This document shows positions 10,067 to 53,285 of a stretch of 64,000 bases of DNA, piece by piece. A program made the translations under genes and the position numbers. The stretch lies in NCBI GenBank assembly GCA_012646185.1, contig GCA_012646185.1_4706.1, one strand, 5' to 3'. How positions within the stretch are numbered: position 1 is the first letter of the stretch; every line of letters starts with the position of its first letter. Below the pieces are notes generated by a model. That model was not told the DNA's origin and did not search any database. It worked only from the letters and a program-made list of their open reading frames with translations. Source of the stretch: a phage.

Positions 10067-10093
10067 CACTTAAGTAATATAGCCGTGAAAAAT
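10067..10093 (-). promoter_or_regulatory. conserved 25-nt motif copy 1 (plus strand TCACTTAAGTAATATAGCCGTGAAA)
   Basis: One of four near-identical intergenic copies; minus-strand reading contains TATATTAC. Confidence 0.45.
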
Positions 10094-21707: not shown

Positions 21708-22486
21708 GCGAACGTTTCTCCTGTAATGTGTTGCGGATGGCGTAGCATGGTAGCATCCCATTGTACGATCCGGCTCCGGCTTACCAGCATCATGACGGAT
21801 TCATCGTCAAGCCCTGGCTGCGCAACCGGCAACCAACGTTCGTTAAGCACCTTCGCTTCAACACGTTTCTTGCGGGGATTGTAGCGCACTTCGCTAACCC
21901 AAGCGAATCCAAGTGGATGCACAACCCGTGGATAATACATGCGAAGCAATTGATGCATCCGATCCGTTGCCTCCAGATTGCAATCCACCATGTAAGGTTT
22001 CACCATGGTAAGCTTTTTGGTGTAATACGTTCCAACGGTATGGTTACGCCAACTTGGCAAGGCATGATCCCCTTCTCTCAGTTTGCTATCCGAGTTCATC
22101 GGCCAGACCTGCTGTTTACCGGCCAGCATCGCGTACTGCCGATCAACGCAACGAACCTGATCGGCGAACAATGGATCCAGAACATCATCCACCGCACCCT
22201 TATTGCGATAACCGTGATGTACCACCAACCTGCTTGCGCTCATCGATGCGGGATGCTGGCTCTTATGCGCATACAGCCCACCGTCACCGCGAGGGTCGTA
22301 AAGATAGCCGCATGCGCCACGCCATATCACCTTGCCTACGGTTCTCTCGTTTTCAAGCAGCATCGTCGGCCCATCAAGCAAATTGGTGAACCACTGCACC
22401 TTCACGCATTCCGCTTGGACATGCTCAGGTAATGCCTGATACTCTTTTTGGGTGTATAAGGTATCAAAAATGATTTCATCGTTCAT
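21704..22486 (-). CDS. hypothetical protein (260 aa)
   Basis: ATG with GAGGA SD; first gene downstream of motif copy 2. Confidence 0.55.
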   Translation of the reverse strand: MNDEIIFDTLYTQKEYQALPEHVQAECVKVQWFTNLLDGPTMLLENERTVGKVIWRGACGYLYDPRGDGGLYAHKSQHPASMSASRLVVHHGYRNKGAVDDVLDPLFADQVRCVDRQYAMLAGKQQVWPMNSDSKLREGDHALPSWRNHTVGTYYTKKLTMVKPYMVDCNLEATDRMHQLLRMYYPRVVHPLGFAWVSEVRYNPRKKRVEAKVLNERWLPVAQPGLDDESVMMLVSRSRIVQWDATMLRHPQHITGETFA

Positions 22487-22568
22487 TTAAAAAGTTCCTC
22501 TGTTTTTCACGTTAATTAAACAACGTATTGATTTCTATTTGACGCAATACGAACATTGTACGTATGCA

Positions 22569-22593
22569 TCACTAAGGTAATATAGTCGTGAAA
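22569..22593 (-). promoter_or_regulatory. conserved 25-nt motif copy 2 (plus strand TCACTAAGGTAATATAGTCGTGAAA)
   Basis: ~83 nt upstream (minus orientation) of the 21704..22486 start. Confidence 0.5.
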
Positions 22594-23286
22594 GGATTTG
22601 TGTTACAGAAAGGGTTTTGTTGTGTTTTAAGAAGGGATGGATTTAGAAGAGGTGTTTCATGGAAGGTAAACGAGGATAGGTATTTTGATTTAAGTAAGTA
22701 AGATGTTATCTGTATTCGTTAAAAGTGTATTGTTTATCTTAGGTTATGTCTTATTGTTTAATCGTTTAATATTTTTATCTAAGTAGGTTTAACTCTATCT
22801 TGTTTGTATATTTAAATTAAATCAATAAGCTTATCTTCAAAACAATGGATAACATGTGTTTACTACCTTAACGGTAACACATGTCATCTGTGCATTACAC
22901 TCCGTTATCACTTCGTTACATGCTTATAAGTTGGATAACTCAAAAAAACATTTGTGATACTCTTCTTCACGTTGTTCATCAGAGTATCTCGTCTATACTC
23001 ATTGCATTCGTATACGACATAACCGTTATACGCTAACGCTACGCTTATAGCTTGATAACTCTAAGGATAAAAACATAAACTCGCTTCGCTCGTTTAGTTT
23101 TTCTTTTTCTTAGAGTTATCCTGTTGCTCGTCTCTAAAGGACTTCGCTCCTCCCCCGTCCCCCGAAGGGGCCGGAGTCGTGGAAATTTTACTTTCCAAAT
23201 ACATTTACAACATCTGTAAACTTTTACTCCAGGTACTTAATCTTATCATTAGAAATTATAAAGAGAAGAATAAACACAAACATAAA

Positions 23287-23318
23287 CCTTCCTCCAACCC
23301 AACAGGGAAGGAGGAAGG
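23287..23318. terminator. conserved CT/GA hairpin (minus-strand reading CCTTCCTCCTTCCC-TGTT-GGGTTGGAGGAAGG)
   Basis: Directly downstream of the 23335..24228 stop. Confidence 0.6.
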
Positions 23319-23334
23319 GAGAGCTTGATTTTAA

Positions 23335-24228
23335 TTAATCGGCGGTGTTATAACCGAATACTGCTTTACCGTAGGTGTGAGTACCGTTAGCTAACGACAG
23401 CACCAGCACATGGTTGTACGTAGCGTTAACGCCCTTGTCAGTAGACTCGGTGGTAGCACCGTTATAGACAAAGGTAGCCGTTTGCAGATTGGCTTTCAGC
23501 TCGGTGATGATCTCATCACTGACACCTGTCTGCTCTTTGATCAGCGTAGTCAGGTTACCTGCCAGGCTTGCATCGATATTTACTTCGTTGCCAGTAATAG
23601 CTTGTAAACCTGCGGTGTAAGTACTGAAGTCTAACGGATAGGTTAACAGACGTGCTGACGTTTTGGTACCATCGCCATCATCAACGTAGGTTAAGTTACC
23701 CAGGTTGGTAACCTTGATGATGTTAGCCAGATCCAGCGTGGTGTTATAAACTTTAACTTGAACAGAGCCATACCACGCCAACGAATCTTCTTTGGCTTCC
23801 AGGGTGATCGTCTGGATACCATGCTGGTCGAAGGTAACCGGCGTAGCTAACGTTTCGGCTTTGATGTCTTTATCTTTATCCAGGAACTTCTCACCGGTCG
23901 GCGTGATCATACCGTAGCGTTGAGCTACAAGGTCAACCACATCACCGATGGTGGTGTCAGCAGTAACGTTAACACGTACAGCGATTTTCTGGAACCACTT
24001 AGCCAGATCCAGACGATGGTAGGTAACATCGCGGTTATTGAAGTAAGGTGTACCATCACCAGGGCTAAGCGTTAAAGTTGCTTCTGGAGCAGAAGCGCTT
24101 TTGGATTTAAGAACGTATTTAAGATCACTGTATTGGAAGCTGGCACCAGTGTCGGCGTTGAGCTGATTGATCTCATCAACGATAAGTTGCCAAGGTGTTT
24201 TTAAAGTAAGCGATACTTGAGTTGCCAT
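23335..24228 (-). CDS. virion-type protein, paralog-family member (297 aa)
   Basis: ATG with GAGGT SD; shares Y-x-R-N, YxRLDL and LAWxGSV motifs with the 35294, 37116 and 37978 products; strongly host-optimised codon usage. Confidence 0.6.
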   Translation of the reverse strand: MATQVSLTLKTPWQLIVDEINQLNADTGASFQYSDLKYVLKSKSASAPEATLTLSPGDGTPYFNNRDVTYHRLDLAKWFQKIAVRVNVTADTTIGDVVDLVAQRYGMITPTGEKFLDKDKDIKAETLATPVTFDQHGIQTITLEAKEDSLAWYGSVQVKVYNTTLDLANIIKVTNLGNLTYVDDGDGTKTSARLLTYPLDFSTYTAGLQAITGNEVNIDASLAGNLTTLIKEQTGVSDEIITELKANLQTATFVYNGATTESTDKGVNATYNHVLVLSLANGTHTYGKAVFGYNTAD

Positions 24229-24369
24229 TTTCTACCTCTATGGTTGTTACATCACTCTCAAAAGATGTAACTGTTTACAGAAATTAATATATTTTATATT
24301 AACGTAAATAATATGGAGAACGACTCCGAATCTCCTTTTCGACCATCAAAAATCAGAGGACACATTATC

Positions 24370-24912
24370 ATGGCCTTAGACTTTAACAAAGCAGCGAAAT
24401 CCCTTCTGCTTGATCTTATCAACACCAAAGCAACCCGCCCACTGACTGAAGAAGAACTGCAGTTCGGTACTCCGGGAGCATCTTCCGAACATGAAAAGAA
24501 CACCGTTATTCAGCTGGATGCTGCAGTTGGTGCAGAAAACCTGCAGGGTAGTCAGCAGTTCTACTACGATCGTCTGGCTCTGTCCGAAGTTTTCGCTGAA
24601 GTAACCGGCGATGTTACTTTCGAACTGCCGCACGGTACCGACAGCATCCAGGCTTCTGAACTGGTAAGCAAGCTGGTCACCAAATTCGGCCTGGCTTCCC
24701 TGACCGGTGAAATCAAAGAAGAAACCTTCCAGCTGTCTGCAGGTACTGTTGCTCAGGTAACTCTGAACGCGATCGAGAACGGTCTGGTATATACCGGCAC
24801 TCTGCAGGTTGCCCTGACCTATGCAGCAGCACCGAAAGACCAACTGGCAACCGTTCTGGCGGATAACGTAGCTGATGGCTTCGTGAAACCGACCGTTAGC
24901 GTTGTTGGCTAA
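24370..24912 (+). CDS. abundant small protein (180 aa)
   Basis: ATG at 24370 with GAGGA SD (ATG at 24313 lacks one); very strong codon bias (ctg/ggt/cgt/aac) suggests high expression. Confidence 0.6.
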   Translation: MALDFNKAAKSLLLDLINTKATRPLTEEELQFGTPGASSEHEKNTVIQLDAAVGAENLQGSQQFYYDRLALSEVFAEVTGDVTFELPHGTDSIQASELVSKLVTKFGLASLTGEIKEETFQLSAGTVAQVTLNAIENGLVYTGTLQVALTYAAAPKDQLATVLADNVADGFVKPTVSVVG

Positions 24913-25111
24913 TAAGCACATAGAGCAATAGTATGGGTTTTGTACAGCTCGGCTATTGCTCTTCTACAATTTGGTTGTAACAATCTGCGTGGTTGCACGC
25001 TTATCTTTCTCATTGAGCGCTTCGTATGAAGCGTGGTGTTGAAAGGGTTGTGGATCTCCTCAAGCGGCCAGGGACCCAGACCAACCTGAATAAACACGAA
25101 CACCTGTTAAG

Positions 25112-25143
25112 CCCCTCCTCATCCGTTATTGGGTGAGGAGGGG
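25112..25143. terminator. CT/GA hairpin variant (CCCCTCCTCA...TGAGGAGGGG)
   Basis: 10-bp perfect stem ~200 nt downstream of the 24370..24912 stop, between convergent genes. Confidence 0.55.
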
Positions 25144-25206
25144 TCTTATACGTCTTTATGCGTTCCGTTCGTTCTGGAGCGTTTTAGGACGGTTTACGGC
25201 AGGGTT

Positions 25207-25842
25207 TTATTCAACACTGAAACCGTTCAAACGAATAGCTTCATAACGCTTACGTTCACGTCGTTTACGCGCCTGCCAGCCGTAAATGAACTTCTCGTCT
25301 TTCTCACGACGTTCAGCTAATTCGATGTAATAGGTGCTCTGCATGTCCAGCATCGCGTCGATGAGATAATCCTTACCGGTTGCACCACGCTTAGAGATGT
25401 AAGCATCAAGAGCTGCCAGTGATTTGGGGCCCATTGCACCATCAGCATCAATATCTTTCCAGTAAGTTTGACGGTTATTCATGACGTTCAGATAACGCTG
25501 GAGGTTCTTAACCGCAACCGTTTTACCTGCATTGATACCCAGGTCAAAGAGACGGTCAGCTAAAAACACAGAACGTTTCATGACTTCGTCAAGTTTCATC
25601 TTATCCCAGAAGTGGGTCTTGTAGATAAAGAACGCCATTTCCGTGGTAAGGTTACGCATGTTACCGTCCCAGCCGAATTTCGTTTTCAGCGTGGTTTTGT
25701 ATTGATTGGCAAGCGCTTGCGTCACGCCGTGGTTCGTGATTCCGCCCGAGTCATCTGGATCGTCGACATAACCTGCCTCGATGCTGGTCTTGTCGCGAAT
25801 GATGAATTCGCAGGTGAAATCTTTTTCAGTAATCTTAGCCAT
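25207..25842 (-). CDS. endolysin, GH108-type muramidase with C-terminal peptidoglycan-binding region (211 aa)
   Basis: N-terminal EAGYVDDPDDSGGITNHGVT motif typical of GH108 lysozymes; GAGGAG SD. Confidence 0.8.
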   Translation of the reverse strand: MAKITEKDFTCEFIIRDKTSIEAGYVDDPDDSGGITNHGVTQALANQYKTTLKTKFGWDGNMRNLTTEMAFFIYKTHFWDKMKLDEVMKRSVFLADRLFDLGINAGKTVAVKNLQRYLNVMNNRQTYWKDIDADGAMGPKSLAALDAYISKRGATGKDYLIDAMLDMQSTYYIELAERREKDEKFIYGWQARKRRERKRYEAIRLNGFSVE

Positions 25843-35293: not shown

Positions 35294-36199
35294 TTATGCT
35301 ACATATAACGTTAGATAACCATCGATGAGCGTATTCATCACACTGAGTTGGAGTACGACAGCTTTACTAACATCCGTACGTACACCGAACGGTAGTGTTT
35401 TGAATTGCTCTGGATCGGCTATTACTCTCGCGTTCTGCAAGTTGAGTGGTCCAGGCATTGACGACAATACCCAGCGATCGTTGACCATAAGGCCGTCGAT
35501 CTCTTCAGAGAGACCCAATTGCAGTGTGTTCATTTCTGCGATTAGTGCCTCCGATTGCGTATCGCCTGAGGTTAATGTGTACCCATCGGTAAGTGATGCC
35601 AGAACACCAGCAGATACGAACCAGTTGTACGAAACAATAGCGCCTGGGAGTTTACTGCTATCTCGATCGATGATATAATTCAACCCAGCCAACATATTGT
35701 TGCGAACGAGGTTGTTGAGGTCGTTATGTCCTGAGGTTAACTCAACAAGTAACTGACCAACCCATACTTGGTTACCAGGTTTAGGTGTTATCACAACCTG
35801 TATCGGTGACTTGGACTTATCCAGATCCGCGTCGACAATCTCGGTTTTGTTGAGAAGGATACCGTACGTCGATGCTAAGACAGGTAGGATCTCAGAGACC
35901 TTGGTTAATGCATCTAAGGTTTCGATCTCGATGGGCCAGTGGTGCTGTCCGCCAGGCCAAGTACCCAGTTTACCAAGATCGATGCGGTTATAATAGATGT
36001 CGACAGAGTTCACCAGCCCTGAACCCGGTTGGGGATGCACGGTTAACTTGCTGTTACGCTTGTACCCTGTGCTTTCAGAAGCCTCACCGATAACCAGTTT
36101 ATCCAGCGTTACGCCTCGAGCATCGAAATCGCTATGCTTTCGAATCAGCCGAAAGAGGATTTCTTTCGATTCTAACCCCAGGATTTCACTGTACTCCAT
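35294..36199 (-). CDS. virion-type protein, paralog-family member (301 aa)
   Basis: AAGGGGTG SD; YKRN...YYNRIDLG...STYGILL motifs shared with paralogs. Confidence 0.6.
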   Translation of the reverse strand: MEYSEILGLESKEILFRLIRKHSDFDARGVTLDKLVIGEASESTGYKRNSKLTVHPQPGSGLVNSVDIYYNRIDLGKLGTWPGGQHHWPIEIETLDALTKVSEILPVLASTYGILLNKTEIVDADLDKSKSPIQVVITPKPGNQVWVGQLLVELTSGHNDLNNLVRNNMLAGLNYIIDRDSSKLPGAIVSYNWFVSAGVLASLTDGYTLTSGDTQSEALIAEMNTLQLGLSEEIDGLMVNDRWVLSSMPGPLNLQNARVIADPEQFKTLPFGVRTDVSKAVVLQLSVMNTLIDGYLTLYVA

Positions 36200-37115: not shown

Positions 37116-37967
37116 TCAGTTATATTGCATCAACAGGATACCGCCGTAGTTCGTGCAGTAATCTTGGCTAAGCGTAACGATAACAGCGTTAGCGAACGCA
37201 GGGTTAACCGGATAACCCTGTGCGATAAGTTCTGTTGTTTTACCGGTTGCAAGCACGGTGGCTCCGTAAAGGTTGTTTTCGTCTTCACGGCCGTTATAAA
37301 CCCATGGGGTTGGCGCAACGTTGTTGAATAAGCTAACCATTGCGCTTAAATTACCGCCAACTTTTAACCCGGCGAGATCGGAACGGATAGCCGTACAGTC
37401 TATAGCGTAACTGTAGACCAGTGCCTGGATACGATTTGCGGTGTAGTACGGGAAATTGAGGCCGGTCATCACCGTGGACTTCATCATCCCCGCAACATCG
37501 TGGGCACTATCGAGGAGATAGAACGTAACACTTCCCGTCCAAGCCAATCCGGTTGTTTTCAACTCTACGGTGTGAGGGAACGGATATTCATCACCTCGTA
37601 CAATCGGAGAATCGACGCAGCTATCCTGATCGATAACGATTCCGTACGTTGATTGAATCAGAGGGATAAGATCGTGCGTCGTTTTAACCCCAGCATCGAT
37701 AGCAAGCTTCGGTTCCATTCCCAAGAAGAAGTCTTGGATAGGGATACGATCGTACCACACGTAGCTGCTTTCACGGTATTGTGCTGGTGTTACTGTTGCC
37801 GAAGGTGATACCTTAGCGCGTGTGTTCCGTTTATACGCGTGGTTTCCGTTTTCAGCAACATCCGTGATATCAAGTGCATCGAAGTTAAAGTCGAAGTCAG
37901 GATTGGCTGCCTGAATAAGTTCAGCGACCAGTACTTTAGGACTTTTGTTTAACAATTTCTGACTCAT
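37116..37967 (-). CDS. virion-type protein, paralog-family member (283 aa)
   Basis: AAGGA SD; YKRN...WYDRIPI...STYGIVI...LAWTGSV motifs. Confidence 0.6.
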   Translation of the reverse strand: MSQKLLNKSPKVLVAELIQAANPDFDFNFDALDITDVAENGNHAYKRNTRAKVSPSATVTPAQYRESSYVWYDRIPIQDFFLGMEPKLAIDAGVKTTHDLIPLIQSTYGIVIDQDSCVDSPIVRGDEYPFPHTVELKTTGLAWTGSVTFYLLDSAHDVAGMMKSTVMTGLNFPYYTANRIQALVYSYAIDCTAIRSDLAGLKVGGNLSAMVSLFNNVAPTPWVYNGREDENNLYGATVLATGKTTELIAQGYPVNPAFANAVIVTLSQDYCTNYGGILLMQYN

Positions 37968-37977
37968 TGTTTATTCC

Positions 37978-38913
37978 TTAGCCTTGTTCTTCTGGAGAAC
38001 GACCCTGGAGGCTTGCGGTATGTCCGTCGACGTTGTAATAGAAAATCAATGGACCGCCGACGGCAGTACAGTAGTTTTCATCCAGACCGATCTCGATACC
38101 GTATTGGTAACCTGCTCGTGCTGGAATACGTCCGCCTAACTCGCCGTTGAAAGCCACTTTAGCGTTATACAGGTTATACGGTGCGATGTTGTCGTCTAAC
38201 ACCCAACGATCGGCGGTCATTTCAGCCAGAAGATCGGCGACCACCACATCGCTAATGACCGTACCTGTTACCAGCGAAGCTAGCAACTCACCGTAATCAG
38301 AAGTATCACGACTGTAACTGTAGATCTCACCGCTAGCGCGTACGCCCTGTCCGAAGAACTTAAGACCATCAAGCTCTTTGATCGCGATAATATCATCAAG
38401 ATTCGGTACACGCGACTTCATCAAGATACGAACACTTCCCGTCCAAGCCAGGCAGTTAGATGCGACACGAAGCAATTGTCCGTTAACGGTATCCCAGTTA
38501 AGTTCGTCGTTGACGATTTCCTCCGCGGTAAGGCCAAGACCGAAACGTTCTTTGATGATAGGCCAGATATCACGCATCTTGGTGGCGTCTGGCGCATCGA
38601 TAAGAATAGGCGCTACGTTACGCAGATACGCACCGATATTGATACGATCGTAATACAGCGTCGTCGAACCTTCGTAATCGTCTAACTCAGTAAGCTTAGC
38701 GGTTGCTGTCGCCGTAATCTGGGTGTCGCGCTCATAGGCGCTTTGGTTGGTGGTTGGTGTTCCTAAAACCAATAATTCAGGGGTTAGGATATGCTCTCCG
38801 TTCTGAGGTGGGTTATCGTGGTTGATAAGACCATACACGAGATCGGATGAGGGTAAAGAGACGTCGACCGGGTAAAGTTCGGTGTCGTCAATAGTTGTTA
38901 CCGTATCACTCAC
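37978..38913 (-). CDS. virion-type protein, paralog-family member (311 aa, GTG start)
   Basis: GTG preceded by strong GAGGAGG SD; YERD...YYDRINIG...ERFGLGL...LAWTGSV motifs. Confidence 0.6.
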   Translation of the reverse strand: MSDTVTTIDDTELYPVDVSLPSSDLVYGLINHDNPPQNGEHILTPELLVLGTPTTNQSAYERDTQITATATAKLTELDDYEGSTTLYYDRINIGAYLRNVAPILIDAPDATKMRDIWPIIKERFGLGLTAEEIVNDELNWDTVNGQLLRVASNCLAWTGSVRILMKSRVPNLDDIIAIKELDGLKFFGQGVRASGEIYSYSRDTSDYGELLASLVTGTVISDVVVADLLAEMTADRWVLDDNIAPYNLYNAKVAFNGELGGRIPARAGYQYGIEIGLDENYCTAVGGPLIFYYNVDGHTASLQGRSPEEQG

Positions 38914-50576: not shown

Positions 50577-50725
50577 CGTCAACCTCCATCTGATTGAAAA
50601 CTATCACGCATAATGCATTTCCCTTTTCTTGTTCTTATCGAGCCGACAGCCGACGGTTTCAGCATCGTTCCTAGCGCGAGAACGACCTTACGTGTTGTCT
50701 ATGCCTTATTCATCGCAGGCGTCTG

Positions 50726-50750
50726 TCACCTAGGTAATGTAAGCGTCAAA
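50726..50750 (-). promoter_or_regulatory. conserved 25-nt motif copy 3 (plus strand TCACCTAGGTAATGTAAGCGTCAAA)
   Basis: Between the family hairpin and the 49140..50576 start (minus orientation). Confidence 0.5.
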
Positions 50751-50784
50751 TTTTTTCTATTCGCAACAATAAACGGCATAGAAA

Positions 50785-50814: not shown

Positions 50815-50913
50815 CTGACTTATGTATCACGGTGCCGGATGAATGTCCGGTGCAATGAAACCATCCGCAACGTTGTCGTCAAGAATATCGTCCAACGAAG
50901 CAGCTACGGTAGT

Positions 50914-53136
50914 TCAGTTAGTCTGAACCGGCAGCTTGATGTTTTCAGTGTAGACCTTACGCAGGTTCACAACGTTAATCAGACCCAGCAGCGGGCAGTT
51001 GTTAACGAAGCGGCAGCGCGGCTGAACCATGGTTTCTTTAGAAACCTGACCGTTACGGGTAACCTGAGCAACAGATACCAGTTCCGGTACATACAGGAAC
51101 ATACCGAAGGTCAGCGGATCCGGAGAACCCTGGATACCACGAGACAGGGTCACGAAGATCTTATCGCGCAGCATGACGTTCGGGTTATCTACAACCACGA
51201 AGTTGAAGCTTACACCAACGGTACGGAAATCGCCATCGGTCTGCAGGAACTGCGGGATGTAGTTGTCAGTTGCTACTACGCAACGCGGTTTCTCATCAGC
51301 GTTGGAAGACAGCAGCTGCAGAGCTGGCTGATAACCAGACTCGGAGTACATGCGGTATGCCATCTCACGAATCACGTTCATGATCGCAGCAGACACTTCA
51401 GCACGACGTTCTGCAGTGGTGGTACCCTGAACAGATTTCTCCAGGTCCAGATTGATTTCTTCGAACCACGGACGGATCAGGTAACGACCGAAACCTTCGA
51501 TCTGGATGTCGCCGAACTGACGGAAGCGAGAGGTCGCAACCGCTTTCAGTGCGTCTTTGTAGCTGAACAGTTTCTCAACCATCAGGTTGTCGAAACGTGC
51601 GTTAGCAGCTTGGATCAGAACGTCCAGGTCAGCAGCGTTTTCTTCCCAATCCAGCGGACGAGGAATGGAGAACGGAGCCAGCAGGCCGATTGCGTAACGT
51701 TCTTGCTTCATGTTGAAGTCAAGGTGCTTACCGCGCTCACGACGGTTGCTGTTGTTACGGCGGATACGCAGTTCGTAACCAACCAGTTTGAAGCTCAGGT
51801 CTTCAGCCAGCTGTTTGAACTCTTCGCCCTTACGCGGTTGTTCGATGTTGTCACGATCGACCAGACGATACAGTTCAGCGTTAGCGCCGTTAACACGCAG
51901 ACCGGCTTTCTCTACGTTGGAAGAACCGTAAACTTCGATTGCCAGCTGAGCAGCGGATTTCGAATCGATGATGTCCTGCAGCGCTTCAGCTCGTGCACCT
52001 TTAACGTCAACGGTGTTCTCATCAACGAAGATGGAGTGGGTGTCGAACGCCAGGGTCATTTTGCGGAAGTCGCCTTCCAGGGATTTCTGGAAACCGTTGG
52101 TGATCAGACCAGATACGTCGAACGGTACGTAAGAGGTTTTGCTGTGCTTGGTAGATTTGATTTCCACCAGGATTTTGGTCAGCGTGATCTGGGCGTCCAG
52201 CGCGTCGGTGTTGTCGCTGTAACCGTTAGCCAGGATGCTATCGTCTTCAGCGATACCGATCATGTCGATCAGTTTATCAACAGCCAGGTAAGACGTTTTA
52301 TAAGTTACGCCTTTAATTTCGATGTCGCGCGGAGCAACGATAGCTTTGTCAACGAAGTACTGTGCGTTAGCATCGTCAGCACGATAGATCGGATGCAGAT
52401 CGGTCACGTCGTTGGACAGAACGTCGTTGTACATGAACGCATCCAGCAGCGGACGACGTACCCAATCAGCCGGAGTACCGTCAGCGTTACGACGCAGGTG
52501 GTTGAACACCAGCGGACGACGGAAAGATACGTCGTAACCGATCTGGTTCGGAGCCAGAACGATGGTGTTGTACAGTTCGTTACCCATGCGGCTCAGACGA
52601 GAAGCCTTCACGTTGAACACAACGGAGTACGGCATCATGTCACGCAGTTCTTTCTGGTCGTAGGACAGCTGAACCAGTTCTTCAGATTCGCAACCGCAGG
52701 AATCAGCAGCCATCATGACGAAGTTAGAGCTGTCAACTTCACGGCCAGACGGAGTGGTGCTGATGTTCATGGAACGTGCTTGTTTAGCATATTCCACCGG
52801 GTTACCATGAGCCAGCATGATCAGTGCTGCTGCACGAGCCTGCTGTGCGTTCATGGTGAACAGCTGTTCTTCAATACGCTGCTTCTCTTCCGGAGTGGTG
52901 GTTTCGAAGCCCAGCATGGACAGAACCGGTTCTTCGGCTTTACGGATGTCGCTGCTGAAGCTCTTAACATCCATTTCGTTAACCAGTTTGTCCATGGATT
53001 TGAAATCAACCTTAGAAGCAGATTCCATAGACAGGAAGGTGTTCTCCAGACCTTTGTCTGCTGGTTTGCTACCATTAGCGGTCAGGAACTGGCGAGTGGC
53101 CGCGACCTGTTGGCTAAGAAGGGTTTTATCATTCAT
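50914..53136 (-). CDS. major virion structural protein (major capsid or tail sheath candidate, 740 aa)
   Basis: Strongest codon-usage bias in the window; ATG with AAGGA SD; length matches phiKZ-type major capsid proteins but also sheath proteins; no motif-level assignment possible. Confidence 0.55.
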   Translation of the reverse strand: MNDKTLLSQQVAATRQFLTANGSKPADKGLENTFLSMESASKVDFKSMDKLVNEMDVKSFSSDIRKAEEPVLSMLGFETTTPEEKQRIEEQLFTMNAQQARAAALIMLAHGNPVEYAKQARSMNISTTPSGREVDSSNFVMMAADSCGCESEELVQLSYDQKELRDMMPYSVVFNVKASRLSRMGNELYNTIVLAPNQIGYDVSFRRPLVFNHLRRNADGTPADWVRRPLLDAFMYNDVLSNDVTDLHPIYRADDANAQYFVDKAIVAPRDIEIKGVTYKTSYLAVDKLIDMIGIAEDDSILANGYSDNTDALDAQITLTKILVEIKSTKHSKTSYVPFDVSGLITNGFQKSLEGDFRKMTLAFDTHSIFVDENTVDVKGARAEALQDIIDSKSAAQLAIEVYGSSNVEKAGLRVNGANAELYRLVDRDNIEQPRKGEEFKQLAEDLSFKLVGYELRIRRNNSNRRERGKHLDFNMKQERYAIGLLAPFSIPRPLDWEENAADLDVLIQAANARFDNLMVEKLFSYKDALKAVATSRFRQFGDIQIEGFGRYLIRPWFEEINLDLEKSVQGTTTAERRAEVSAAIMNVIREMAYRMYSESGYQPALQLLSSNADEKPRCVVATDNYIPQFLQTDGDFRTVGVSFNFVVVDNPNVMLRDKIFVTLSRGIQGSPDPLTFGMFLYVPELVSVAQVTRNGQVSKETMVQPRCRFVNNCPLLGLINVVNLRKVYTENIKLPVQTN

Positions 53137-53285
53137 TGAAAGTATCCTTTACAGAATTAACTTATATAAGTCGGTCGATAGACCATAGCGTACACGCGTG
53201 CATGCGCCACTATAGTATCAGTAAACACTTACCGTTATTGAGGTCGTGATACAACACTAAAAATGCCGCATAACTTTTCCCTACG

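Follow-up and report, generated by a model that had tools for sequence, protein, structure and literature searches.

The stretch of phage DNA analyzed here (64,000 nt, contig GCA_012646185.1_4706.1 of GenBank assembly GCA_012646185.1; hereafter, the window) comes from a close relative of Escherichia phage vB_EcoM_Goslar, a nucleus-forming jumbo phage of the family Chimalliviridae, and carries a pair of divergent genes orthologous to Goslar gp022 and gp023 (hereinafter gp22 and gp23), the second of which is separated from a putative terminator hairpin by 199 nt of non-coding DNA that we denote Element A. This element is almost certainly subject to strong purifying selection and, judging from the substitutions among related phages, most likely is a functional structured 3' untranslated region (3'UTR) of the gp23 message. 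The reading of the locus as a whole that we favor, with moderate confidence, is that of a gp22/gp23 module of a Goslar-like chimallivirus in which codon usage is driven by protein abundance, transcription would start at divergent motifs of the phage non-virion RNA polymerase (nvRNAP), and the structured 3'UTR of gp23 would act in cis. The locus comprises the following features:

23335–24228, minus strand: 297-amino acid (aa) open reading frame (ORF), orthologue of Goslar gp022, annotated as 'virion structural protein'
24229–24369: divergent intergenic region of 141 bp between the 297-aa and 180-aa genes
24370–24912, plus strand: 180-aa ORF, orthologue of Goslar gp023, annotated as 'virion structural protein'
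24913–25111, plus strand: Element A, conserved structured non-coding region, predicted 3'UTR of gp23
24922–24931 and 24953–24962: arms of a 10-bp inverted repeat, AGAGCAATAG...CTATTGCTCT
24922–24962, 24965–24979, 24987–25000, 25017–25034 and 25045–25087: predicted helices H1, H2, H3, H4 and H5/6 of Element A
25036–25040 with 25093–25097: predicted long-range helix of Element A
25112–25145 (core 25112–25143): putative terminator hairpin of the CCCTCC...GGAGGG family, common to the convergent gp23 (plus strand) and endolysin (minus strand) genes
25207–25842, minus strand: homologue of the endolysin gene gp024, convergent, downstream of the 180-aa gene

In a megablast search, the region 23100–25200 was matched by Goslar only (94.5% nucleotide identity; 93.6% for gp22), with the same synteny of the pair. 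Over 63.6 kb, the window and Goslar are 96.8% identical, and the divergence between them is a mosaic in which perfect runs reach 625 nt. Other relatives (L-numbered loci) were drawn from IMG/VR, metagenome and assembly collections; L022 and L023 are referred to below as distant and all remaining sequences as closer.

The distance from the stop codon to the terminator is 199 nt for gp23, compared with 4–35 nt for nine other genes of the window. All sequence features listed in a preliminary description of the locus were found in place; the ~230 nt that it assigned to the non-coding 3' region correspond to the 231 nt that separate the stop codon from the end of the hairpin core, whereas the stretch between stop and hairpin is 199 nt long (233 nt to the end of the 25112–25145 span and 294 nt to the stop codon of the convergent endolysin gene). 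For inverted repeats of 10 bp or longer, the excess over shuffled sequences is seven-fold (10 observed vs 1.4), so the repeat in Element A is unlikely to have arisen by chance. From 24814 to 25097, the window is identical to Goslar without a single mismatch, a 284-nt run that ranks about 24th; given the mosaic character of this comparison, the perfect identity to Goslar (185 nt over the 3' region) was dropped as evidence of constraint, and relatives and four-fold degenerate sites were used instead. Among 18 distinct sequences, Element A is 89–99% identical, while identity falls to 70–76% of nucleotides (~50% of amino acids) in gp23 and spans 83–92% in the endolysin gene. The divergence of Element A (0–0.097) is 4- to 40-fold lower than that of neighboring synonymous sites (0.11–0.54 at the four-fold degenerate sites of the adjacent endolysin gene) and, in 8 of 11 comparisons, is below even the amino acid divergence of the endolysin, with a sharp boundary of conservation at the gp23 stop codon. 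A scan of 22300–25400 on both strands against Rfam 15 (E <= 1) produced no match, and ARAGORN detected no tRNA or tmRNA in the entire window.

The alignment of the 3' regions is consistent with constraint at the level of RNA. RNAalifold predicts five hairpins and a long-range helix followed by the terminator. Variable columns are concentrated outside of the predicted stems (24 of 74 unpaired vs 10 of 106 paired columns, p = 1.7e-4), and nearly all changes within stems convert G-C or A-U pairs to G.U, ten of them on one side only; in addition, there is a single compensatory change, and three changes disrupt pairs at the ends of helices. Eight G.U pairs of the consensus can form on the plus strand only, and the cells of the consensus structure are canonical in 99.7% of the cases on the plus strand vs 88.4% on the minus strand. 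A covariance model built on these sequences recovered the 3' region of the distant L022, in which blastn finds nothing and next to which gp23 is only 46% identical, with a score of 47.6 bits (E ~1e-11), the family terminators elsewhere scoring at most 24.5 bits. In the alignment fitted to this model, 15 compensatory pairs were counted, compared with 1.0 +/- 1.0 in shuffles and 0–2 in slid controls, and with L022 included, support extends to helices 1, 3, 4 and 6, the long-range helix and the terminator. Thus, a structure of Element A that is formed in plus-strand RNA appears well supported by comparative analysis. Given that H1 begins 9 nt after the gp23 stop codon and that both of its arms are invariant, the RNA would have to start within or upstream of gp23, that is, Element A would be a 3'UTR rather than an independently initiated gene. 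The preliminary description had proposed either a structured 3'UTR or a separate small RNA; conservation and covariation support this proposal, except that a small RNA with its own internal start appears unlikely.

Structured 3'UTRs of bacterial and phage messages, 3'-terminal stabilizing stem-loops, and small RNAs (sRNAs) derived from enterobacterial 3'UTRs, such as CpxQ and SroC, are well known. Element A is similar to these in being located between a stop codon and its own terminator, in consisting of multiple hairpins and in being conserved above the neutral expectation, but differs in its size (~190 nt with a long-range helix), in a conservation stricter than a nuclease barrier needs, and in belonging to a phage that has to export its mRNAs from a nucleus walled by protein. 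Among related phages, sRNAs derived from 5'UTRs or from intergenic regions, such as the one that precedes phiKZ gp182, have been reported for 201phi2-1 and phiKZ using ONT-cappable-seq (PMC11512511). By their description, these phages resemble the window in having conserved terminator motifs and a conserved structured non-coding RNA beside structural genes, although none of the reported sRNAs is a 3'UTR element of a DUF7941 gene (PMC11512511).

The hairpin that closes Element A belongs to a family represented in the window by at least 12 two-tier hairpins of the form CCCTCCTCC-TT-CCC-loop-GGG-TT-GGAGGAGGG, located 4–35 nt after stop codons:

23287–23318, minus strand: putative gp22 terminator hairpin, 16 nt after the stop codon
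2876, 7513, 11663, 18700, 23287, 25112, 35253, 44356, 50783, 55583 and 57268: positions of family hairpins

The 25112–25143 stem fits this family and its tail, UCUUAUAC, is a near match, so that the unusual feature is the distance of 199 nt from the stop. In 12 of 17 distinct sequences, pair 210–228 of A1 is a U.G, a pairing that holds on the plus strand only, and the UCUUAUAC tail also fits the plus strand. In the Goslar GenBank record, the hairpin is annotated on the minus strand, for the endolysin, and in Goslar-type sequences the minus-strand tail UUUGUUUGUGUUUAUUC resembles the tail after the gp22 hairpin; the hairpin at 25112 is therefore described here as a putative terminator that probably works in both directions. 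An attempt to orient the hairpins by their pyrimidine-rich and purine-rich arms was uninformative, this property being strand-symmetric. For most family hairpins, (T)TATG(C) comes 1–4 nt after the hairpin, also at sites that face antisense DNA only. The idea that TATG after every terminator is a promoter was rejected on account of these sites, and the post-hairpin TATG is more likely to be part of the termination signal.

Both proteins encoded by the pair belong to the DUF7941 family (PF25613 in Pfam, cut-off 27 bits). The 297-aa protein matches positions 4–275 of the 276-position profile (172.8 bits) and, by this coverage, would be a full-length module with an N-terminal domain, a linker and a C-terminal domain; the 180-aa protein matches positions 4–174 only (76.3 bits) and appears to consist of the N-terminal domain and a linker/tail, without the C-terminal domain, in agreement with the description in the Goslar preprint (10.64898/2026.04.21.720040). 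The pair also matches PHROG 1037 and 2935 ('virion structural protein'), and the 297-aa protein matches PHIKZ127 in PDB 9xqd (E = 3.2e-6); a sequence search of solved structures with the 180-aa protein returned nothing significant. The upstream ATG at 24313 (199-aa ORF) was rejected as the start of gp23, the codon adaptation index (CAI) of the extension being 0.22 and its frame being disrupted by indels in relatives. Altogether, the window holds five DUF7941 members, namely, the pair and the genes at 35294–36199, 37116–37967 and 37978–38913. According to the preprint, DUF7941 proteins are built of globular N-terminal and C-terminal domains joined by a linker and dock head-to-tail; gp22 of Goslar forms filaments in negative-stain electron microscopy; and a 'fiber cloud' at the peripheral baseplate is proposed (10.64898/2026.04.21.720040). 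The window pair is orthologous (~94% nucleotide identity) to Goslar gp22/gp23 and belongs to the chimallivirus DUF7941 family that includes phiKZ gp126/gp127 of the peripheral baseplate. The preprint covers proteins only and does not address codon bias, the divergent control region, gp23 hypervariability or the conserved 3' RNA element.

Virion proteomics of the 180-aa product, which the preliminary description had proposed, exists for the ~94%-identical Goslar orthologues: mass spectrometry of Goslar virions gives ~2,140 copies of gp23 and ~580 copies of gp22 per virion (10.64898/2026.04.21.720040), which bears out the high expression that had been deduced from codons. In Goslar RNA-seq, blocking the phage nucleus by ChmA knock-down lowers gp022, gp023, gp024 and the major capsid protein (MCP) gene 16–40-fold (log2 3.5 to 5.4 for gp022/gp023), whereas gp021 reads are unchanged (10.1101/2023.09.20.558163). 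By orthology, the window pair thus would be late and nucleus-dependent and, given the unchanged gp021, the 848-bp gap toward the gp021 homologue would separate it from an early operon. It is nearly certain that both genes encode abundant late DUF7941 virion proteins under translational selection; in Goslar, their products are among the most abundant proteins of the virion and the most abundant ones outside the capsid.

Codon usage is in line with these copy numbers. With the E. coli weights of Sharp & Li, CAI is 0.745 for the MCP gene (50914–53136, minus strand, 740 aa), 0.687 for the 180-aa gene, 0.461 for the 297-aa gene and 0.453 for the endolysin gene, the window median being 0.288 and the mean 0.307 (sd 0.079); the effective number of codons (Nc) of the 180-aa gene is 34.5. 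In a reference-free principal component analysis (PCA) of relative synonymous codon usage (RSCU) across 59 genes, MCP is the first, the 180-aa gene the second (2.7 sd) and the 297-aa gene the fifth (1.4 sd), and the RSCU correlation with MCP is 0.89 for the 180-aa gene and 0.77 for the 297-aa gene against a median of 0.43. Thus, codon usage is not uniform across the window by either approach, and the strong host optimization that had been ascribed to both genes holds for the 180-aa gene, while that of the 297-aa gene is only moderate, about equal to that of the adjoining endolysin gene. The bias is maintained (CAI 0.48–0.70) in gp23 alleles whose proteins are just 46–55% identical. The host-like codons are attributable to selection for efficient translation, the strength of which follows copy number (MCP > gp23 > gp22); they are the expected signature of protein abundance, so that the protein part of the observation is already explained. 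A 766-aa ORF antisense to the MCP gene (50839–53139, plus strand; Nc 31.7), which a longest-ORF procedure would call as a gene, is an artifact that was corrected using the Goslar annotation and that arises because the extreme codon bias of MCP clears the opposite strand of stop codons.

The intergenic region between the two genes contains several short elements; a related one lies beyond gp22:

24246–24271: inverted repeat GTTACATC-N10-GATGTAAC, which would be a hairpin in the gp22 5' leader on the minus strand
24264–24280: invariant core GATGTAA-N4-TTTACA(G) with TGTAA/TTACA half-sites; the minus strand reads T(C/A)TGTAAA
24284–24311: AT-rich spacer (TTAATATATTTTATATTAACGTAAATAA) between two putative start sites
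~24288–24302: AT-rich stretch TATATTTTATATTAA
24312–24315, plus strand: TATG, 55 nt upstream of gp23, with a predicted start at G24315
24355–24360: Shine-Dalgarno sequence AGAGGA of gp23, in the predicted 55-nt leader
23204–23220: related element TTTACA-ACATC-TGTAAA

The 8-bp inverted repeat, which had been singled out in the preliminary description, is indeed present but is neither conserved as a hairpin nor the conserved feature of the gap. In the alignment of this region for 19 relatives (invariance was counted over distinct sequences), the repeat reaches 8 bp in this genome alone; in most relatives, it is at most 7 bp long, with the outer pair broken, the left arm is variable, L009 carries an internal mismatch, and the distant clade has another, shorter repeat. 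Examined by eye, the L026 and L027 variants keep the pairing through G.U in minus-strand RNA only, which fits, weakly, a hairpin in a minus-strand leader. The predicted hairpin has a folding energy of -11.1 kcal/mol (z = -1.84). Perfect inverted repeats with arms of 8 bp or more and loops of 3–20 nt are approximately three-fold in excess (41 observed vs 14 +/- 3.3 in dinucleotide shuffles), so a lone 8-bp repeat is weak evidence.

What is conserved in the gap is the core and the TATG. Apart from its N4 spacer, which varies, the core GATGTAA-N4-TTTACA (24264–24279) shows no change among the 17 closer distinct sequences that cover it; in the distant L022 and L023, it differs. TATG is invariant in 18 of 18 closer distinct sequences, while position -4 and the flanks vary (L022 and L023 are unalignable there), and the spacer remains AT-rich in all relatives, the L007 copy being enlarged by TA repeats. 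On the minus strand, the core reads TCTGTAAAC in the window; the distant clade and L026 carry TATGTAAA where the window has TCTGTAAA, and a string nearly identical to TTAATTTCTGTAAA of the gap, TTAATTCTGTAAA, is found upstream of the MCP start. As summarized in PMC12809450 from Ceyssens 2014 and Yakunina 2015, the late promoter of the phiKZ nvRNAP is 5'-TATG-3', with the start at G. The gap resembles this promoter in having TATG 55 nt upstream of the late gp23, in an AT-rich context and with nucleus-dependent expression in Goslar; it differs in that gp22 has TCTG at the matching place in this genome, where relatives have TATG. A motif of 4 nt is common by chance, and TATGG occurs 6 times in non-coding DNA vs 4.8 expected. 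With a gp22 start near 24278, the leader of this gene would run into the inverted repeat after 7 nt, and the gap probably holds back-to-back late promoters along with both 5' leaders. A scan for sigma-70 promoters and simple terminators gave results at the background level, which says little because the phage uses its own polymerases.

The gp23 gene itself is hypervariable. Its product (24370–24912) is 46–96% identical at the amino acid level to those of L009–L013 and L022–L030, on backbones that are 85–99% identical, and the alleles fall into two groups that are ~50% identical to each other. The allele breakpoints map to the gp23 5' leader and to the stop codon, and in L027, an allele of the distant group is found on a near backbone. 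The most conserved part of the protein is the C-terminal tail (LATVLA[DN]NVA[DE]GF.KP), of which the last ~20 residues are nearly invariant. Thus, gp23 is a hypervariable allele, open to exchange and flanked by conserved non-coding DNA, which fits the proposed role in host recognition.

Under the scenario that we favor, the phage nvRNAP would transcribe gp22 and gp23 divergently from back-to-back start motifs, the TATG of gp23 and the T(C/A)TG-TAAA of gp22, which lie ~37 bp from each other on either side of the AT-rich spacer; the inverted repeat near the 5' end of the gp22 leader would be a modest, poorly conserved stem-loop and not an operator. Element A would be transcribed as the 3'UTR of gp23 mRNA and would act in cis on this message, which is late and very abundant, by protecting its 3' end, by directing its processing, or by recruiting a factor of the phage or the host; it may additionally accumulate as a stable 3' fragment. 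Action in cis is our preferred inference, with a processed trans-acting RNA and a recombination anchor as the alternatives. Several observations weigh against this scenario. In L022, helices 2 and 7 are not kept, and 14 of the 15 compensatory pairs come from this single distant sequence, in an alignment that was itself fitted to the model; close relatives provide one compensatory pair, which 29 of 500 shuffles match. The folding energy of the region, although low together with the terminator (z = -5.8), is ordinary once the terminator is left out (z = -1.76; 9 of 200 shuffles fold equally well), so the case rests on conservation and not on minimum free energy. The conservation far exceeds the needs of simple stabilizing hairpins, so protection of the 3' end alone is probably not the whole function. 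On the side of initiation, there is no TATG upstream of gp22 in this genome, and the TCTG start was guessed from relatives; the 5' hairpin predicted in the gp23 leader is not significant (z = 0.27); and start sites, co-transcription and terminator use are all read from sequence.

The possibility that Element A is a trans-acting sRNA, either processed from gp23 mRNA in the manner of the enterobacterial 3'UTR-derived sRNAs or internally started, and regulating phage or host targets or titrating a protein, is one that we consider rather unlikely. Its loops and linkers are highly conserved as well, beyond structural need, it shares a terminator with the mRNA as 3'UTR-derived sRNAs do, and sRNAs are reported in the related 201phi2-1 and phiKZ (PMC11512511). 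Although TATGG is present inside Element A (24932–24936), a start at this internal TATG would lose the perfectly conserved 5' arm of H1; Element A has no Rfam family; and when Element A and a second conserved non-coding region, Element B (see below), were compared with each other and with the rest of the 64-kb window, complementarity did not rise above the chance level. Conservation at the DNA level is less probable still: here, Elements A and B would be homology anchors kept uniform through the recombination that swaps the gp22/gp23 cassette among co-infecting phages, or else a protein-binding DNA site. Such a role would account for gp23 alleles down to 46–55% identity between flanks of 90–99% with a sharp boundary at the stop, for the L027 combination with its breakpoint inside the gp23 leader, and for the mosaic divergence from Goslar with its perfect runs of up to 625 nt. 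Homogenization, however, predicts neither the concentration of variation in loops, nor wobble changes valid on one strand, nor the compensatory changes in L022, and Element A surpasses the adjoining coding DNA in conservation in most comparisons, not merely in some mosaic blocks. The two roles are compatible: an RNA with a function of its own can double as an anchor.

For the intergenic region, the alternative is that the 8-bp repeat, the TGTAA/TTACA half-sites and the 23204–23220 palindrome are operators through which a dimeric regulator of the phage would control both genes. Around a varying spacer, the TGTAA-N4-TTACA half-sites do not change in the 17 closer sequences, the 9-mer TCTGTAAAC recurs at 23212–23220 (plus strand) and 24281–24273 (minus strand), and [CT]TGTAAA is found 6 times in non-coding DNA vs 1.8 expected; yet the 8-bp repeat itself is not conserved, and a single such repeat in 4.6 kb of non-coding DNA does not exceed chance, while the motif abuts the ribosome-binding site of MCP and gp029 (TGTAAAGG) and so may be a leader or Shine-Dalgarno sequence. 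We know of no regulator that would fit, and regard operators as improbable, slightly more so than the DNA anchors. Far less credible is a hidden coding sequence in the 3' region, whether as a short ORF, as an extension of gp23 reached by read-through or frameshifting, or as the decayed remains of its C-terminal domain. There are indeed ORFs of 15 aa (plus strand) and 64 aa (minus strand), the gp23 frame stays open for 37 codons beyond the stop, and the 294-nt gap is comparable in length to the C-terminal domain (~117 aa) that gp23 lacks, but one-base indels in L011–L013 and L024–L026 disrupt every frame, so there is no conserved peptide; the tandem stop TAATAA speaks against read-through; a tblastn search with five DUF7941 paralogues yielded only noise (E >= 0.6) apart from the overlapping C-terminal codons of gp23 itself; and the conservation is too high for a pseudogene.

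What is new here, then, is a stretch of non-coding DNA whose evolution is slower than that of most proteins encoded around it. In chimalliviruses, mRNAs are made inside a proteinaceous nucleus, exported, and translated outside. A constrained structured 3'UTR on a top-expressed late message would be a concrete mutable handle on the stabilization, export and dosing of messages.

A second ultra-conserved non-coding region, Element B (~270 nt, 22945–23225, minus strand), is located beyond the gp22 terminator and is unannotated in Goslar; a variable stretch (22487–22948) adjoins it on the other side. Its divergence is 0.7–4.8% vs 11–41% at the endolysin four-fold sites, so that it is even more conserved than Element A. 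Element B includes the TTTACAGATGTTGTAAA palindrome (the TTTACA...TGTAAA element listed above), several hairpins, among them CUCCG-CCCC-UUCG-GGGG-CGGGG, and a 12-bp repeat, GGATAACTCTAAG/CTTAGAGTTATC; its minus-strand 3' end is a stem followed by T7. A CT/TC swap and a variable patch keep the pairing on the minus strand only, and the few wobble and compensatory changes likewise hold for that strand alone. The Rfam scan of 22300–25400 yielded no match to Element B, and it is absent from L022 and from L009, where a 717-aa divDNApol gene is found instead. In the adjoining variable stretch, CTATATTAC, embedded in cacgNCTATATTACyTtAGTGA, is one of only two copies in the window (22577–22585 and 10074–10082, both on the minus strand), each ~90 nt upstream of the start of a minus-strand operon (gp021 and gp004 homologues, respectively). 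This motif matches the phiKZ-type early promoter of the virion polymerase, TATATTAC; gp021, downstream of one copy, behaves as an early gene in the published Goslar RNA-seq.

Another observation concerns the end of the MCP gene, where the UGA stop is followed in frame by an open extension:

50821–50916 (stop 50916–50914), minus strand: 31-codon extension after the MCP UGA, …VQTN*TTVAASLDDILDDNVADGFIAPDIHPAP*

The extension ends 5–12 nt ahead of the MCP terminator hairpin and resembles the gp23 tail: in a profile search of all six-frame peptides, it was found with E = 9.8e-5, the next best hit having 0.89. Across 14 genomes, it has three variable sites only, all of them synonymous third positions, and in Erwinia phage pEa_SNUABM_48 and Salmonella phage SA002, the homologous tail (…LDGLN..P.P*) is the normal MCP C-terminus, without a stop. 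The deposited Goslar MCP chains end at residue 740, a word-indexed protein search with the MCP C-terminus retrieved fragments only, and no mention of MCP read-through was found in the literature searched, including the Goslar structure preprint. A tentative and, in our estimate, doubtful interpretation is that programmed UGA read-through would give a minor MCP isoform with a DUF7941-type docking tail, such that the ~2,100 gp23 copies and other DUF7941 filaments would be tethered to the capsid and not to the baseplate alone, with the gp23 3'UTR RNA as part of dosage control. After the MCP terminator, upstream of gp040, there is a non-coding leader of ~200 nt (50577–50780, minus strand) with predicted hairpins, which was compared among four close genomes.

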